Below, piece by piece: positions 1 to 6,991 of a stretch of DNA of 27,183 nt. The stretch is from a virus (lineage: Duplodnaviria > Caudoviricetes), in the IMG/VR virus record IMGVR_UViG_3300033076_001413, positions 1 to 27,183 of that record; one strand, given 5' to 3'. Position numbers and translations under genes: made by a program. The notes under the pieces were generated by a model. That model saw nothing but the letters and a program-made list of their open reading frames with translations. It had not been told where the DNA came from and searched no databases. Position 1 is the first letter of the stretch. Each line of letters starts with the position of its first letter.

Positions 1-66
1 ACCACCGCATCGCCAACAGCTTTAGAGCCTCGGACACCTGCCGTTGGCTTCGGCGATTTGTTCCAC
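1..66 (-). repeat. attC: attC site (partial, truncated by window start)
   Basis: - strand reads GTGGAAC AAATC GCCGAAGCCAACGGC...; GTTCCACATCA (60-70) is the exact reverse complement of TGATGTGGAAC (441-451). Confidence 0.75.
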
Positions 67-92
67 ATCAACGTCCGAAACTGAAAACAAAT

Positions 93-443
93 ATGAATGA
101 AACAACCGAAAAACTAATCCGTGACCTCGCCGAAAAACTCGGCACAACAGCCGAACACCTGTGGGGTGTCCTCATCCGCCAAGCGCCAATCACTGCTATC
201 ACCGACCTGCTCCAAGTCCTGATACTCGCAGCGGTGTGCGTGTATGGAGGTCGCCGCCTGATGCGATGGCACAAGAAACTGCAAGAATCGGGCGATGCTG
301 ACCATCCAGGATTCGTGCTGACCTACATCGGCTTCGTGGTGCTGCTCTGCATCACAATCATCTGCGCGCTTTGTAGCGTGTCTGGAATAGTGACCGCCTT
401 CAATAACCCGGAATACTGGGCACTCAAGCAAATCGTGAAATGA
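93..443 (+). CDS. Cassette 1 gene: small membrane protein (2 predicted TM helices), phage hypothetical
   Basis: 116 aa ORF with two hydrophobic stretches and C-terminal NPEYWAL; A-rich sequence before the ATG. Confidence 0.8.
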   Translation: MNETTEKLIRDLAEKLGTTAEHLWGVLIRQAPITAITDLLQVLILAAVCVYGGRRLMRWHKKLQESGDADHPGFVLTYIGFVVLLCITIICALCSVSGIVTAFNNPEYWALKQIVK

Positions 444-487
444 TGTGGAACGCCAAGCTCAGCGACGGCGCGAAAACCTATGAGTGA
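443..487 (+). CDS. Putative 14-aa relay mini-ORF (MWNAKLSDGAKTYE) crossing into attC
   Basis: TGATG overlap with the upstream stop at 441-445; its TGA (485-487) lies just past the ATG of the next gene (480). Confidence 0.4.
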   Translation: MWNAKLSDGAKTYE

Positions 488-550
488 CGATTGCAACAAG
501 AGCGCGGAAGTGAACGGCGGCACGCCGTTCGCTGAAGCGCGTGGTTATGC
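445..550 (-). repeat. attC: attC site (106 bp)
   Basis: - strand: R'' GCATAAC, 5-nt spacer, GCTTCAGCGAACGGCG ... CGCCGTCGCTGAGC, spacer TTGGC, R' GTTCCAC; the stem has two extrahelical bases. Confidence 0.9.
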
Positions 551-737
551 CGCACACGTCCGCCGACTCCAAGAGCAGAACCGCCTGCTGGCCGAGTGCC
601 TCGCGGACGAAAGGCGACTCCGCAAGCAAGCCTATGCGTGGTATCAGAAGCGACTCCAAAGCCGCTGGTGGTCACTGATGGATATGGTGCTGCTTTCTGT
701 GCGGCATAACGTCCGAGATGAGCCACGCGGGAAATAA
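480..737 (+). CDS. Cassette 2 gene: hypothetical coiled-coil protein (85 aa)
   Basis: ATG lies in the attC loop (480); TAA lies inside the next attC, 1 nt before the next ATG. Confidence 0.65.
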   Translation: MSDDCNKSAEVNGGTPFAEARGYAAHVRRLQEQNRLLAECLADERRLRKQAYAWYQKRLQSRWWSLMDMVLLSVRHNVRDEPRGK

Positions 738-793
738 TATGAGCACCACCAAAAAAGCAGCGAGCCGCGTTGGCTCTGGGGAGTTGGTTCGGC
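704..793 (-). repeat. attC: attC site (90 bp)
   Basis: - strand: GCCGAAC CAACT CCCCAGAGCCAACGCGG ... CCGCGTGGCTCATCTCGGAC GTTATGC; L boxes somewhat degenerate. Confidence 0.82.
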
Positions 794-972
794 GGCTGTG
801 GCGCGTAGAATTTCAGACGGGGTTTGTGCAATTCGAAAGCGTAATTGCCGACGAAGCATTCGCCCGCCGCTGGGCTTTGAAATCCAAAGGCGCACCGAGC
901 CACGAGCGGATCACAAAAGTCACGAGCGTCGAAGCGCCGCCGAACGACAAGCTGAGAGATGCCGCCACATGA
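739..972 (+). CDS. Cassette 3 gene: hypothetical protein (77 aa)
   Basis: ATG 739 in the attC loop right after TAA 735-737; stop forms an ATGA overlap with the next gene inside the next attC. Confidence 0.65.
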   Translation: MSTTKKAASRVGSGELVRRLWRVEFQTGFVQFESVIADEAFARRWALKSKGAPSHERITKVTSVEAPPNDKLRDAAT

Positions 973-1030
973 ACGCTCCGAATAACGCGCAAGACGCGAT
1001 GGCGGCATTCTCTCCAGCGACTGGTTCGGG
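939..1030 (-). repeat. attC: attC site (92 bp)
   Basis: - strand: R'' CCCGAAC, CAGTC, L'' GCTGGAGA, GAATGCCGCC ... GGCGGCATC, L' TCTCAGC, TTGTC, R' GTTCGGC; extrahelical G and A. Confidence 0.92.
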
Positions 1031-1622
1031 GACGGTCGTAAACAAATTTCGCGTTGATGATGCAAGGGTAGCATGTCCGCTTTTCCAAGCGGAACACGGC
1101 GGTTCGACTCCGACCTCAACGCTCCAATTCCGAATCGTGGAAATCGAGATGCGACGGGCAGCGCAACTGAATCGGCAGTGGCATAGCGTGCTGCCGAAAA
1201 CCTACCTCGCAAACCTCAACGGCAACATCTGCAAGGTCGCGTATGCGGCAGAGTTCGAGGGCGTGGCATACGCGGTGGCAATCTGGACGACTCCAATCGC
1301 GGCAAACCGCATGGCCGATGGGTGGAATGCGCTCGAACTCCGTCGGCTGGCAATCGCTGACGATGCTCCAAAGAACACGGCAAGCCGGATGCTGGCCGTG
1401 ATGACTCGACTGATAAAAGCCAAGTGGCCGCAAATCAATCGGCTTGTCAGCTACCAGGCGGAGAAACACCATGCGGGAACAATCTACAAGGCCGCCGGCT
1501 GGACGAATGCAGCGACTTCGGATGCTAAGACGTGGCATCCTGGCCGGCTGCGTGCGGCACAACAAACCGACTCCGCAAAGGTGCGCTGGGAATACACCCT
1601 GCGCGAGTCCCCGAACAAGTGA
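969..1622 (+). CDS. Cassette 4 gene: Mom-like (XF1762-type, GNAT-fold) DNA adenine hypermodification protein; alternative starts GTG 1137 / ATG 1149
   Basis: Motifs LNRQWH, ELRRLAI.DDAPKN.ASR, LVSY, H.GTIYKAAGW and K.RW are typical of Mom-family proteins. Confidence 0.8.
   Translation: MNAPNNAQDAMAAFSPATGSGTVVNKFRVDDARVACPLFQAEHGGSTPTSTLQFRIVEIEMRRAAQLNRQWHSVLPKTYLANLNGNICKVAYAAEFEGVAYAVAIWTTPIAANRMADGWNALELRRLAIADDAPKNTASRMLAVMTRLIKAKWPQINRLVSYQAEKHHAGTIYKAAGWTNAATSDAKTWHPGRLRAAQQTDSAKVRWEYTLRESPNK
1051..1126 (+). tRNA. Non-canonical tRNA-Gly-like element (8-nt anticodon loop, bulged T-stem, encoded CCA)
   Basis: Acceptor GCGTTGA/TCAACGC, D-stem ATGC/GCAT, anticodon stem TCCGC/GCGGA with loop TTTTCCAA, T-arm GGCGG-TTCGACT-CCG(A)CC, discriminator T + CCA. 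Confidence 0.8.
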
Positions 1623-1628
1623 TTAGGC
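1610..1628 (-). other. attI: attI core site
   Basis: - strand GCCTAAT-CACTT-GTTCGGG = L box, 5-nt spacer, R box. GTCCCCGAAC (1607-1616) is the reverse complement of GTTCGGGGAC (1024-1033), yet no attC hairpin follows. Confidence 0.8.
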
Positions 1629-1644
1629 AACCACTCATTGCTAT

Positions 1645-2595
1645 ATGAAACAAAGCCAAGCGATTGATAAGTTCCGTGATTACATGCGGTTGAAACATTT
1701 GGCGCTGTCCACGGAGCAGAGCTATCTGGCGTGGCTGGCGCGGTATATGCGCTTTCTGGCAGGGGAGGCGGTGGAGGGCATGACGGGAGAGCAGAAGGTG
1801 GAGGCGTTTCTGTCGCACTTGGCGCGGCAGGATGTTTCGGCGTCGACGCAGAATCAGGCGTTTAATGCGCTGGTGATGTTTTATCGGGAGATCGTGGGGC
1901 AACCGTTGGCGCGGATTGATGCGTTGCGGGCCAACAAGCCGGTGACGTTGCGCGAGTCGCCAAGCCGGGAAGAGGTGCGGGCATTGCTGGCCAACGTCAA
2001 GGATGTGCATGGGTATCCGACGCGGTTGATCACTCATCTGATTTACGGGTGCGGGCTGCGGGTCACGGAACCATGCAATTTGCGGGTCAAGGATGTGGAG
2101 TTGCAGAATCAACGGCTCGTCATTCGCGGAGCCAAGGGGGGCAAGGATCGCGTGGTGCCGTTGCCGTGCTCGTTGCACGCCGGTCTGCGGGATGCGTTGG
2201 AGGCGGCAAAGGTGGTGTGGAAACAGGACGTGAAGGACGGTTTGCCGCTGCAATTGCCGGGACTGTTGGCCAAGAAGTATCCGCAAAGCCGGTTCGCGTG
2301 GAAATGGGCGTGGGTGTTCCCTCAAAAGTCGGCGTGTGAACATCCGCGAACGGGTGAGTTGGTGCGGTATCGGCTGCACGAAGCCAACGTGCAATTGGCT
2401 ATTCGGAGGGCGAGCGGCGGGAACATCAAGCCGCACGAGTTGCGACACGCCTACGCGACGCATTGCTTGAATCAGGGCACGAATCCGCGCGCTATCCAGC
2501 AGGCGATGGGGCACAAGTCTTTGGAAACGACGATGGGGTATCTACACGCGGAGGCGATGAGCGTCCGGAGTCCGTTGGAGGTAGTGAACGTATGA
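1645..2595 (+). CDS. intI: Integron integrase (tyrosine recombinase)
   Basis: N-terminal STQNQAFNAL, YGCGLRVTE, KGGKDR, integron-specific insertion LPGLLAKKYP...WAWVFP, HELRH, GHKSLETTMGY. Confidence 0.95.
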   Translation: MKQSQAIDKFRDYMRLKHLALSTEQSYLAWLARYMRFLAGEAVEGMTGEQKVEAFLSHLARQDVSASTQNQAFNALVMFYREIVGQPLARIDALRANKPVTLRESPSREEVRALLANVKDVHGYPTRLITHLIYGCGLRVTEPCNLRVKDVELQNQRLVIRGAKGGKDRVVPLPCSLHAGLRDALEAAKVVWKQDVKDGLPLQLPGLLAKKYPQSRFAWKWAWVFPQKSACEHPRTGELVRYRLHEANVQLAIRRASGGNIKPHELRHAYATHCLNQGTNPRAIQQAMGHKSLETTMGYLHAEAMSVRSPLEVVNV

Positions 2596-3770
2596 GCACG
2601 GCGATGCGCTACAAGGACGCCAATGAATGTTTGCAGGCGGGGGTGCCGGTGGAGGTGATGACGGCGTGTCTGCACAATGCCGAGGTCATCACGCCGGAAC
2701 GGTTGCGCGGCATCTACGATTTCGAGCAGGAGATTTGGGAGAAGTTTCACAGCACGGGCCGGGAGCAATTGGGTTACGTGTTGCCGTGGGGCAATTCCCA
2801 CAACAGCAGTCTGCCGTTCCGGTTTCGCATGGGCGAGGTGACGGTGTGGACGGGGCACAACGGCCACGGCAAGAGCCAGGTGTTGAACCATGTGATCGTG
2901 GATCTGGCGTGGCAAGGGTTGCGCTCGCTCATTTGCAGTTTTGAGATGAGCGCACCGGAGACGTATCGGCGGCTCATCCGCATGGTGCGCGCGGAGGCGA
3001 AGCCGGCGGAATGTTCGCGCGAGGAATTCCGGGCGCGATGCCTCACGCCCCTTTCGGACAAGGTGTGGGTTTACGATCATGTGGGCATGGCGGAACTGGT
3101 GGACGTGCTGGACATCGCCCGCTACGCGCGGCGCCGTTACAACGTGCGGATCGTGGTGATCGATTCCCTGATGTGCCTGAAGGTGCTGAGTGACGAGGAC
3201 AAATACACGGAGCAAAAGAACTTCATGAACGCGCTGACGAGCTTCGCGGCGGAGAACCAGATGCATCTCATCCTCGTGGCGCATTCCAAGAAGCTCGATG
3301 TGAAGGGGAACAAGGAACATCACATCCCGCGCAAGTATGACATCGCGGGCAGTGCGGACATTTCCAACCTCGCGTGGAACGTGTGCATCATCTGGCGCAA
3401 CAAGAAGAAGGAGGAACGCTTGCGCGAGCTGTGGGACGAATGCGCGTTGCGCGCGGGCAAAAGCAGCCACGCCATGACGCCGGAGGATTTCAACAAGAAC
3501 TACACGATGGAGGAGAAGGAGGAGATCGAGCAGTTGTTGGGCGATAAGGATGCGTATTTCCTCGTGGACAAACAGCGCGGCGGCGAGGGCGATGAGCTGG
3601 GGCGCAACCTGTGGTTTCACAAGAACAGTTTGCAATATCTGGAACAGCCGTATCACAAGGGCGGGCGTCCCTCGAAATACTGGCAGATGAAGGTGGCGCT
3701 GAACGAGGGCGAGGAATTGGAACGGGCCGGCGCGGAGCCGGTGTTTGAGACGGGGGAAGGGGCGTTGTAG
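2592..3770 (+). CDS. SF4 replicative helicase (T7 gp4/Twinkle-like) lacking most of the primase domain
   Basis: Walker A TGHNGHGKS, Walker B VVIDSL, LVAH, DIAGSADISN; N-terminal KDANE; ATGA overlap with the intI stop. Confidence 0.88.
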   Translation: MSTAMRYKDANECLQAGVPVEVMTACLHNAEVITPERLRGIYDFEQEIWEKFHSTGREQLGYVLPWGNSHNSSLPFRFRMGEVTVWTGHNGHGKSQVLNHVIVDLAWQGLRSLICSFEMSAPETYRRLIRMVRAEAKPAECSREEFRARCLTPLSDKVWVYDHVGMAELVDVLDIARYARRRYNVRIVVIDSLMCLKVLSDEDKYTEQKNFMNALTSFAAENQMHLILVAHSKKLDVKGNKEHHIPRKYDIAGSADISNLAWNVCIIWRNKKKEERLRELWDECALRAGKSSHAMTPEDFNKNYTMEEKEEIEQLLGDKDAYFLVDKQRGGEGDELGRNLWFHKNSLQYLEQPYHKGGRPSKYWQMKVALNEGEELERAGAEPVFETGEGAL

Positions 3771-5004: not shown

Positions 5005-5940
5005 ATGTTTCGCCCGACACCACATCCCGTTTTGCGAGTGCCGACGCCGGAGGAGATGGCGCGCATGGACGCGGCGGCGTTGCGCCAGGGGCTCATCGAG
5101 CGCGAGCAACGCATCAAGCGCGAACAGGCGGACCCCGGCCGGTTCTGCATCGAGCCGCCGGTGTGGCAGGTGTGCGATGCGATTCTCGGGTTCGACTGGG
5201 TGCCGTTGGAGACGGCGGACCGCATCCGCCATAAGTTCGGGTTCAAGAAGCCGAAGGATGTGTTGCTCATCAACGGCGGGAATCGTGGCGGCAAGACGCA
5301 TTACGCGGCCACACGCGTGATGAAGGTGCTGCGACGCAAGCCCGCGGCGCGCGCGTGGTGCTGCCACAGCACGCAGACGATGAGCATCCAGTATCATCAC
5401 GCCTTGCTCTACCAGATGCTGCCGCCGGAATGGCGCGGGGCGGATGTGCGCTCGAAGACGGCTTACATCGCCTACAAGCAGAAGACGGGCTTCAGTGAAG
5501 GCAAGTTTGTGTTGCCGCCCATGGACGGCGCCGCGCGCGGGAGTGAATGCGAATTCAAGAGTTACGACCAGAACATCGAGACGATCGAGGGCGGTAACTT
5601 GGACATCATTTGGGATGACGAGCTGGTGCCGCCGGACTGGGTGGAGACGCAGGAATTCCGCATCGCCGAGCGCAACGGCAAAATCATCATCACGTTCACG
5701 CCGATCAAGGGTTACAGCGCCACGGTGAAGCTTTTCCAGGACGGTGCGCGGGTGTGCGCGGAAAGCATCGGGTATCTGCTGCCCAAGGATGGCGGGCCGC
5801 CGGATGTGGCGCGGGCCTTAGGGCTCACGGAGGAGCAGTTGGCGGAATTGTATGCGGCCGAGCAGGGCGAGGAACTGGATGGCAAACGCGTGGTGCGCGC
5901 GGCCAGTGCGCCGCAAAGCGTGCCGGAGAGGTTTGTGTGA
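5005..5940 (+). CDS. terL: Terminase large subunit, N-terminal ATPase part
   Basis: Walker A GGNRGGKT, Walker B IIWDDE, coupling motif ITFTP. Confidence 0.88.
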   Translation: MFRPTPHPVLRVPTPEEMARMDAAALRQGLIEREQRIKREQADPGRFCIEPPVWQVCDAILGFDWVPLETADRIRHKFGFKKPKDVLLINGGNRGGKTHYAATRVMKVLRRKPAARAWCCHSTQTMSIQYHHALLYQMLPPEWRGADVRSKTAYIAYKQKTGFSEGKFVLPPMDGAARGSECEFKSYDQNIETIEGGNLDIIWDDELVPPDWVETQEFRIAERNGKIIITFTPIKGYSATVKLFQDGARVCAESIGYLLPKDGGPPDVARALGLTEEQLAELYAAEQGEELDGKRVVRAASAPQSVPERFV

Positions 5941-5980
5941 GGAGGGGAAGTTGAGAGCATTGGAGTTGAAAGTTGAGAGT

Positions 5981-6991
5981 ATGAAACGCGAATTTGAACG
6001 GGTGCCGAGGGTGTTGGAATCGGCGTGCGAGGGGAATAACCGCGCTGTCGTGTTCTTCCACAGCGCGGATAATCCGTATGGGAACCCCAAGGGCGTGGCG
6101 GCGAAGGTGCTGAACCGATCGATTGAAGGACGGCGCGAACGGTTCTACGGCATCGCGCACAAGTTGCAGTCCTCGCGCTTCCCGAAGTTCAACGAGAAGG
6201 TGCATGTCATCCGGCCCGAGCTGATCCCCGGTCCCAAGGACGGCACGGACCGGCTGGTGGTGGACCCGGCGGCGCGCAATTTCTTCATGGCATGGTTCCG
6301 GCACACGGCGGAGGCGATCTACATCTATCGCGAGTGGCCGGGCAGTTACTACATTGATGGCGTGGGCGTGCCCGGACCGTGGGCGTTGCCGGATGGCAAG
6401 AAGCCGGACGGCCGCCCAGGACCTGCGCAAAAATCGTTCGGCTGGGGTTACCTGCGTTACAAGGAGGAGATTGCCAAACTGGAAGGTTGGAACGATGCGA
6501 AGAAGGAAAAGCCGGCGGAAATGAGTCACGCCGACTGGGTGCGCGCGTGGGAGAGCTACAACGGCGCCGATCAACCGGTGTATGAGCGGTTCATTGACTC
6601 GCGTTTCGCCAGTGAGCCGCGCATGGAACAGGACCGGCCCACCACGATGCTGACGGATTTCGAGGACATCGGAGTGATCTTCCATCCCACCGTGGGCGGG
6701 GATTCGCGCGAGAGCATCAATGAAGGGGTGCAGAAGATTAACGACGCGCTGGATTACGACGAGGATCGGCCGGTGGATTATTTCAACCGGCCGAAGCTCT
6801 ACATCTCCAGCGAGTGCCAGAACATCATTTTCGCGATGAGCACCTGGACGGGCACGAGCGAGGAGGGCAAGACGAACATGACGGGGGCGACGAAGGACCC
6901 GATCGACGTGGTGCGGTATTACTTTCTGGCCGGGTGCGATTACGTGGGGCCGGGCGACATGGAGGCGACGGGCGGGGGGCATTACTTGTGA
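5981..6991 (+). CDS. terL: Terminase large subunit, C-terminal part (end of ATPase + RNase H-like nuclease)
   Basis: FFHSADNPY, R.YG, VVDPA.RN, IYREWP, FIDSRF, KDPIDVVRY; different frame from the upstream half. Confidence 0.85.
   Translation: MKREFERVPRVLESACEGNNRAVVFFHSADNPYGNPKGVAAKVLNRSIEGRRERFYGIAHKLQSSRFPKFNEKVHVIRPELIPGPKDGTDRLVVDPAARNFFMAWFRHTAEAIYIYREWPGSYYIDGVGVPGPWALPDGKKPDGRPGPAQKSFGWGYLRYKEEIAKLEGWNDAKKEKPAEMSHADWVRAWESYNGADQPVYERFIDSRFASEPRMEQDRPTTMLTDFEDIGVIFHPTVGGDSRESINEGVQKINDALDYDEDRPVDYFNRPKLYISSECQNIIFAMSTWTGTSEEGKTNMTGATKDPIDVVRYYFLAGCDYVGPGDMEATGGGHYL

Follow-up and report, generated by a model that had tools for sequence, protein, structure and literature searches.

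An Integron within a Tailed-Phage Genome

The viral record IMGVR_UViG_3300033076_001413 (Duplodnaviria; Caudoviricetes) is a contig of 27,183 nt, hereafter called the window, which is the whole stretch of DNA analyzed here and carries at its left end an integron: a gene for an integron integrase (intI), an attI site and an array of gene cassettes with their attC sites. The window is entirely that of a tailed phage, with terminase-like, SU10 major capsid and helicase genes that all lie on the + strand. The integrase, IntI, is a protein of 316 aa encoded on the + strand (1645-2595), which scores 270.8 bits with TIGR02249 (cut-off 265) and also matches PF13495; its integron-specific insertion and the catalytic residues R-K-H-R-H-Y are visible by eye. 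The cassette genes are all inverted with respect to their attC sites and read toward intI.

The recombination sites lie on the - strand, as an earlier account of the window (hereafter the original prediction) had claimed, although their inventory needs correction: the attC sites number three complete ones and one half, and attI probably reaches up to the start of intI. From left to right, attC1 (36-66) retains only its R''/L'' arm, the other lying beyond the contig start, whereas attC2 (445-550; 106 bp; crossover 450/451) and attC4 (939-1030; 92 bp; crossover 944/945) were found by both detectors described below and have the full anatomy of attC sites (R''-L''...L'-R', unpaired central spacer and extrahelical bases). 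Between them, attC3 (704-793; 90 bp; crossover 709/710) was recognized from its sequence and has a degenerate L box. On the - strand, attC2, attC3 and attC4 share the layout of R'' (7 nt), a 5-nt spacer and an 8-nt L'', followed by a 7-nt L', a 5-nt spacer and R'. The fold of attC4 gives z values of -4.9 and -4.5; free folding does not give the recombinogenic hairpin of attC2 and attC3 (z -0.7 to +0.6), and folding energy was therefore not taken as a test of attC identity.

The attI core (1610-1628, - strand; R box, 6-nt spacer and L box; crossover 1615/1616) has no hairpin, adjoins the 5' end of intI and has similar counterparts among the 26 platform spacers compared, the platform spacer being the stretch between the last crossover and the intI ATG; it resembles attI1. 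Its L box ends at 1628, leaving 16 bp before the intI ATG at 1645, exactly as predicted, and a second conserved motif probably extends attI to about 1647. In the window, every cassette has an R'' exactly complementary to the R' of the crossover that follows (4/4), that of attC1 complementing the R' at 450/451. Because this complementarity is symmetric it gives no strand, and the strand call rests on the extra L'' base, which in attC2 and attC4 sits on the 5' arm of the - strand, on the end at which attI lies and on a duplicated cassette in the related locus L003 (see below). To judge from its sequence, the integron is complete, with IntI, attI and attC sites in normal geometry. It is neither a cluster of attC sites lacking an integron integrase (CALIN), since intI adjoins the array, nor of the inverted-integrase type, since intI is on the + and the attC top strand on the - strand.

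The four cassette genes, all on the + strand, form a chain in which each gene stops in the next recombination site, overlapping or nearly touching the next start. An open reading frame (ORF) running from the contig start through the attC1 arm (1-84) stops 8 nt before gene 1 and is likely a bridging ORF. Gene 1 (93-443) encodes a membrane protein of 116 aa (phrog_1486, E 4e-14); a bridging ORF of 14 aa (443-487, + strand) starts on its stop (TGATG), passes the crossover and ends over the start of gene 2. The latter (480-737, 85 aa), without match in Pfam or PHROG, starts in the loop of attC2 and stops in that of attC3; gene 3 (739-972, 77 aa, also an unknown protein) has its ATG 1 nt past the gene 2 stop and ends in the attC4 loop. 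Gene 4 (969-1622), presumably the newest, overlaps gene 3 by ATGA and encodes a Mom-like DNA modification protein of 217 aa (PF25680, E 1e-13; phrog_1384, E 1e-19), for which no viral relative was found. Its TGA (1620-1622) is supplied by attI, which confirms that the last cassette gene terminates within this site. At all four crossovers of the window the core AAC is read as Asn.

Cassettes as Units of Exchange

Throughout the 106 cassettes compared here, R'' fully matches (4/4) the core at the next crossover in 88 and its own core in only 9. The most direct evidence comes from locus L003, which contains a 254-nt duplicate (99.6% identical) that begins and ends at crossovers, carries its hairpin on the left and includes, as one of the two copies, the cassette adjoining attI; its limits fix the orientation of the cassette directly. 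Moreover, contigs from four public sequencing runs depart from the window at 939, 942, 943, 946, 1611 and 1616, i.e. at crossovers. Inspected by eye, the AAC frame stays open in three of the alternative upstream neighbours and, in a fourth, contains a stop with an ATG immediately after it, whereas two alternative downstream neighbours look like other attC arms; the diverging contigs may represent other phages that share cassettes. The cassettes thus behave as units bounded by G/TT crossovers, and the L003 duplicate together with the alternative neighbours points to recent exchange.

Similar hairpins are attached to different gene bodies in 26 of the 28 such pairs found among the loci, a situation that may reflect reuse of hairpins at the R'' side. 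A homolog of gene 1 in L138 (2400-2950) is flanked by attC-like arms, as judged by eye, and another in L139 (2330-3060) has no evident attC. Together they suggest that cassettes draw on the ordinary phage gene pool.

Orientation of Cassette Genes in Related Viruses

We then compared the window with its relatives. Fifty-five viral loci were found, from which 10 duplicates and one partial locus were dropped to leave 44 plus the window. Sites were called with a structure-only, strand-neutral detector, giving 0 matches in 77 kb of shuffled loci, and with a profile detector trained on the - strand sites of the former, giving 0 matches in 162 kb of shuffled loci; in view of this training, strand counts were taken from the structure-only detector. 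Together they yielded 142 upstream - strand attC sites in 34 loci, to which attC3 was added by hand. In the 21 viral loci with IntI at least 45% identical to that of the window, 71 of the 76 sites have their longer ATG-started ORF on the same strand as intI. The control of distant IntI genome loci (80 scanned, most without any detected site) shows the reverse, with 6 of 35 sites in 23 loci having the longer ORF on the intI strand and 29 of 35 being canonical. The survey of homologous phage loci that the original prediction had called for therefore upholds its claim that cassette genes run with intI and against attC, as all four do in the window. PHROG matches concur, since they are found for 23 of 74 + strand cassette ORFs versus 1 of 74 best - strand frames.

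In a tree of 67 IntI sequences, the window belongs to a group of 34 rows (support of 99 in the Shimodaira-Hasegawa-like approximate likelihood ratio test, SH-aLRT) that comprises 20 inverted and 14 undetermined arrays and no canonical ones. Clearly inverted arrays, L043 and L045, also fall outside this group. The tree is a quick, midpoint-rooted version, and we do not claim a single origin. DNA methyltransferases, Mom-like or PAPS-reductase-like proteins account for 12 of the 23 annotated cassette genes, which suggests that the cargo may be a shuffled anti-restriction kit. Among GenBank phages there were three IntI-like matches, one of which, Rctr41k (36%), has no attC by the detector used.

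These data bear on the possibility that we are dealing with a CALIN, passive or in decay, next to a recombinase that is inactive or unrelated, or else that the true genes lie on the - strand under a canonical cassette promoter, Pc. The degenerate attC3 and the presence of long - strand frames (e.g. 478-1212) would be in line with it. Nevertheless, IntI passes TIGR02249 and appears to retain its R-K-H-R-H-Y residues, the five long competing - strand frames of the window have no PHROG match (genes 1 and 4 do on the + strand) and only one of the 74 best - strand frames compared has one, no Pc-like match was found in the window, and the near-identical duplicate and alternative neighbours at crossovers argue against decay. 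We consider this alternative highly improbable.

Frame Rule at the Crossovers

A feature absent from the original prediction is the locking of the reading frame at the crossovers. On the + strand a cassette runs from one AA/C crossover to the next, with its own hairpin at the 5' end. Among 94 cassettes with a dominant + strand ORF, 59 read AAC as Asn when passing the following crossover, 1 and 5 pass it in the other frames and 29 stop earlier. In 17 of these 29 a restart ORF then crosses in the AAC frame, with none in either of the other two; three of these restart ORFs, at 53-63 aa, are second genes. One of the rival frames is often closed by a TAA in the core, yet the AAC frame still beats the unblocked frame at 121 of 142 sites, while the frame at R'', the other core that is not a crossover, is unfixed (17/27/15). 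When the ATG lies in the hairpin, the AAC-frame stop falls no more than 8 nt from it in 50 of 59 cassettes, as compared with 8 and 11 for the other frames. Few cassettes are common to several loci, so that these counts are largely independent, though the phages are related.

The pattern is as follows: most genes start in or just after their own hairpin, exit with AAC as Asn and stop in the next hairpin or in attI, the borrowed stop being usually within 8 nt of the next start, and genes that stop early mostly restart a short ORF in the AAC frame. Such a rule would let any cassette follow any other with termination-reinitiation maintained, and would keep ribosomes on the mRNA hairpins. As presented in PMC8876359, an attC hairpin is a barrier to ribosomes except where translation of an ORF carries them across it; according to PMC11511950, poorly translated cassettes lower downstream expression, the effects of attC being mostly mild.

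The frame rule might instead merely provide tailless genes with a stop, the genes being translated independently and their overlaps reflecting the ordinary compaction of phage genomes, in whose operons ATGA overlaps are common anyway. This possibility gains from the 24 of 76 callable cassettes, about a third, that lack close stop-start spacing. On the other hand, restarts in the AAC frame (17/0/0) also occur after genes endowed with a stop of their own, something that stop borrowing does not need, and Shine-Dalgarno-like 4-mers precede only 8 of 76 cassette starts, so that we regard independent translation as unlikely in comparison with coupling between cassette genes.

Probable Operon Context and Expression of intI

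The window leaves only 29 nt between the last crossover and the intI ATG. In 24 lineages this distance ranges from 29 to 71 nt (median 37.5), whereas rough values for canonical controls, with uncertain site calls, are mostly about 70-160 nt. This comparison covers loci at or above 45% identity with a clear attI and ATG, thus omitting L056, L057, L059, L061, L062, L064 and L065, and the attI of the window and of L001 was assigned by hand. Positions 1-2700 of the window gave no sigma-70 match, either Pc-like or like the integrase promoter Pint, although consensus scans cannot show absence, and inside the platform a Pint-like match occurs in 2 of 23 lineages versus 1.6 expected. The assertion that there is no room for an intI promoter consequently holds for the window and most relatives, but not for these two lineages; moreover, a promoter may possibly lie inside a cassette or be of another sigma type.

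In 17 of 23 lineages a TATAT-like hexamer is found 25-28 nt past the crossover, following a TGATT in the attI core by 16-17 nt. Its position is fixed relative to the crossover and not to the ATG, which it overlaps or approaches to within 3 nt in 9 of the 17, the window included. The second motif of the platform, located at these same 25-28 nt (1629-1647 in the window, and in 25 other platform spacers), often forms a short inverted repeat with the L-box flank. Since its spacing is fixed to the crossover and it abuts or overlaps the ATG in nine cases, it is likely to be an accessory IntI site covering the intI start.

At both ends, the array and intI of the relatives overlap or abut + strand phage genes. 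In 13 of 22 loci the intI stop overlaps the start of the following gene, and in 12 of 16 the longest frame entering the leftmost detected site is the AAC frame. In L052, a Mu-like transposase of 518 aa stops inside the first attC, and in L001 and L002, whose upstream genes differ, a common leader ORF begins on the stop codon of these genes and runs in frame into the first crossover. The intI-stop overlaps, the AAC-frame entry and this leader ORF support a mid-operon position of the array and intI, which are likely read through from an upstream phage promoter, a deduction based on gene anatomy. We therefore favour the interpretation that the phage carries a complete integron whose cassette genes all occupy the bottom strand of attC, and that this array and intI are likely expressed in mid-operon from an upstream promoter; we assign to it a probability of about 0.7.

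Several observations weigh against this interpretation. The putative upstream promoter would lie beyond the contig start. A look-up with positions 1-3200 of the window listed no RNA run, which has no bearing on expression. The L box of attC3 pairs at only 4 of 7 positions by eye, and neither detector picked up this site. In one public run (X1), both attC2 (at 546) and the body of cassette 2 (at 524) appear next to other partners and, among the contigs listed, none bridges the two; their junction in the window may reflect strain variation or the assembly. Viral loci with IntI below 45% identity give a mixed picture, with the longer ATG-started ORF on the intI strand at 16 of 24 sites. Coupling among cassettes is frequent without being universal: no dominant + strand ORF is present in 12 of 106 cassettes and no ATG in the searched stretch of 18 of 94, while an ATG located after the hairpin has a stop within 8 nt in only 2 of 17 cassettes. 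The coupling to intI is weak (17 of 24 vs. 12.1 expected, p 0.01), with tight overlaps no more frequent than expected (6 vs. 6.3), and translational coupling to intI may be considered weakly supported. The GTG-started ORF of 9 aa across attI in the window (1619-1648, + strand), which overlaps the gene 4 stop and the intI start, possibly arises by chance (shuffle null 0.81-0.93); its role as a conserved tight coupler was rejected as unproven, given the same count of tight overlaps.

It is also conceivable that the inverted, frame-locked array is read from upstream but intI has its own promoter, either overlapping attI, in the last cassette or not of the sigma-70 type. The weak coupling just mentioned and the frequent TATAT-like hexamer after TGATT would accommodate such a promoter, as would the two Pint-like cases, L012 and L060, in which sigma-70 matches of 9/12 end 6 nt before the intI ATG and constitute candidate leaderless intI promoters, again a point against our interpretation. 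However, the hexamer is tied to the crossover rather than to the ATG, which fits a protein-binding site better than a -10 box, and a promoter within a cassette would presumably vanish on shuffling. Hence, an intI promoter of its own appears rather unlikely, and read-through from the phage operon remains our preferred explanation.

Proposed Mechanism and Origin

Bottom-strand recombination and insertion at attI are established integron biology, as presented in PMC8946536. Since attI marks the 3' end of the + strand chain, each new cassette would be inserted there and come last in the transcript; the original prediction that the newest cassette comes last is supported by this route and by the L003 copy that adjoins attI. 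The intI gene, without an evident promoter in its platform, would be expressed each time the phage operon is active, and shuffling would be tied to phage growth rather than to the SOS response of the host. Location of the bottom strand on the lagging-strand template raises excision (as described in PMC5371416), and this would be its location here if replication were co-directional with the operon, a speculative proposition; the G skew of the + strand agrees with it but is confounded by codon use.

The closest genome relatives of the window IntI (53-63%) are mostly metagenome-assembled genomes of Verrucomicrobiota, for which reason this group is the likely host. A broader scenario, which we advance tentatively, is that a lineage of phages, probably of Verrucomicrobiota, operates its own integron with an assembly standard: headless or tailless phage genes would be mounted on recycled attC hairpins that give them starts, stops and ribosome hand-over, IntI would be produced only during phage transcription, the bottom strand would be the coding strand, exposed by transcription and co-directional replication, so that each infection would reshuffle DNA-modification and counter-defence genes at a high rate.

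Near-identical IntI proteins (89-94%) occur in three different phage gene contexts (window 1645-2595, L001 7047-8948 and L002 7602-8942), and a leader of about 35 nt left of the array is common to L001 and L002; on this basis, the integron platform itself may move between phages. Lone attC-like sites are found downstream of the intI start in L014 (about +2882, + strand), L046 (about +5023) and L027 (about +3941). In the window, the array (60-1616) has a G/C skew near 0 and 57% G+C, compared with +0.20 and 61% in intI and the genes following it, a foreign composition. The gene following intI encodes a phage helicase of the DnaB/twinkle type (2592-3770, + strand), with an ATGA overlap with the intI stop. 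That the integron had split a primase-helicase was considered and dropped, given that, out of 43 close homologs, 40 exist as separate proteins 339-429 aa long (size range searched, 215-686 aa). The large terminase subunit apparently occupies two overlapping ORFs (5005-5940 and 5852-6991), possibly from a frameshift or a sequencing error.

Significance and Comparison with Known Systems

In the account of PMC8946536, integrons are understood as bacterial devices whose choice of attC strand serves to orient genes under Pc. The phage integrons described here would retain the geometry of recombination while reversing the logic of expression, with recombination sites that also serve, under a frame rule, as coding sequence, thereby offering a natural test of the effects of attC hairpins on translation. 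They also provide a handle on how cassettes are made, from the similar hairpins with different bodies (26/28) and a gene family that occurs also without evident attC (L139). Synthetic gene shuffling could make use of this translation rule, which does not depend on cassette order.

The window has the IntI family, attC anatomy and simple attI core in common with canonical integrons, i.e. the class 1 intI1/attI1/attC system and the chromosomal integron of Vibrio cholerae, and with their regular type, as outlined in PMC13323075, the head-to-attI position of intI with attC on the opposite strand. It differs from them in that the cassette genes are not co-oriented with the attC top strand, lying instead on the bottom strand, reading toward intI and having the hairpin at their 5' end; moreover, no Pc or Pint match is found, the platform spacer is of about 30 nt and the newest cassette would come last in the transcript. 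Inverted-integrase integrons of the Spirochaetota type resemble the window in having intI and cassette genes co-directional, but there, according to 10.1101/2022.02.06.479319 and PMC13323075, it is intI that is flipped with respect to attC, with genes co-oriented with attC, whereas in the window the genes are reversed and intI and attC keep their regular arrangement.

The phage integrons and CALINs of Qi et al. 2023 (PMC9892861) equally combine integron parts in phage DNA with DNA methyltransferase cargo. The complete integrons of that study are captured bacterial ones. In the sections considered here, its cassettes are described as typical of bacterial arrays and only divergent attCs in one phage are reported, with no inversion of genes versus attC and no frame rule, although its supplements could show reversed cassettes. 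The nearest parallel to the frame rule is provided by ORF-11 and ORF-18 of attI1 and by short ORFs in attC (Hanau-Bercot 2002; Jacquier 2009, via PMC8876359), in which an ORF crosses the crossover and borrows the stop of the incoming cassette, as here, and for which termination-reinitiation is described to carry ribosomes over the attC hairpin. As portrayed in the same source, these are single short leaders or occasional ORFs on the top strand, whereas most full-length cargo genes and most junctions are involved here, on the bottom strand. No description of systematically inverted, frame-locked phage cassettes was found in the literature searched, which left out most subscription papers. Phage integrons, CALINs and ORF-11-type couplers having already been published, it is the inverted genes with their frame rule that constitute a new form of integron.

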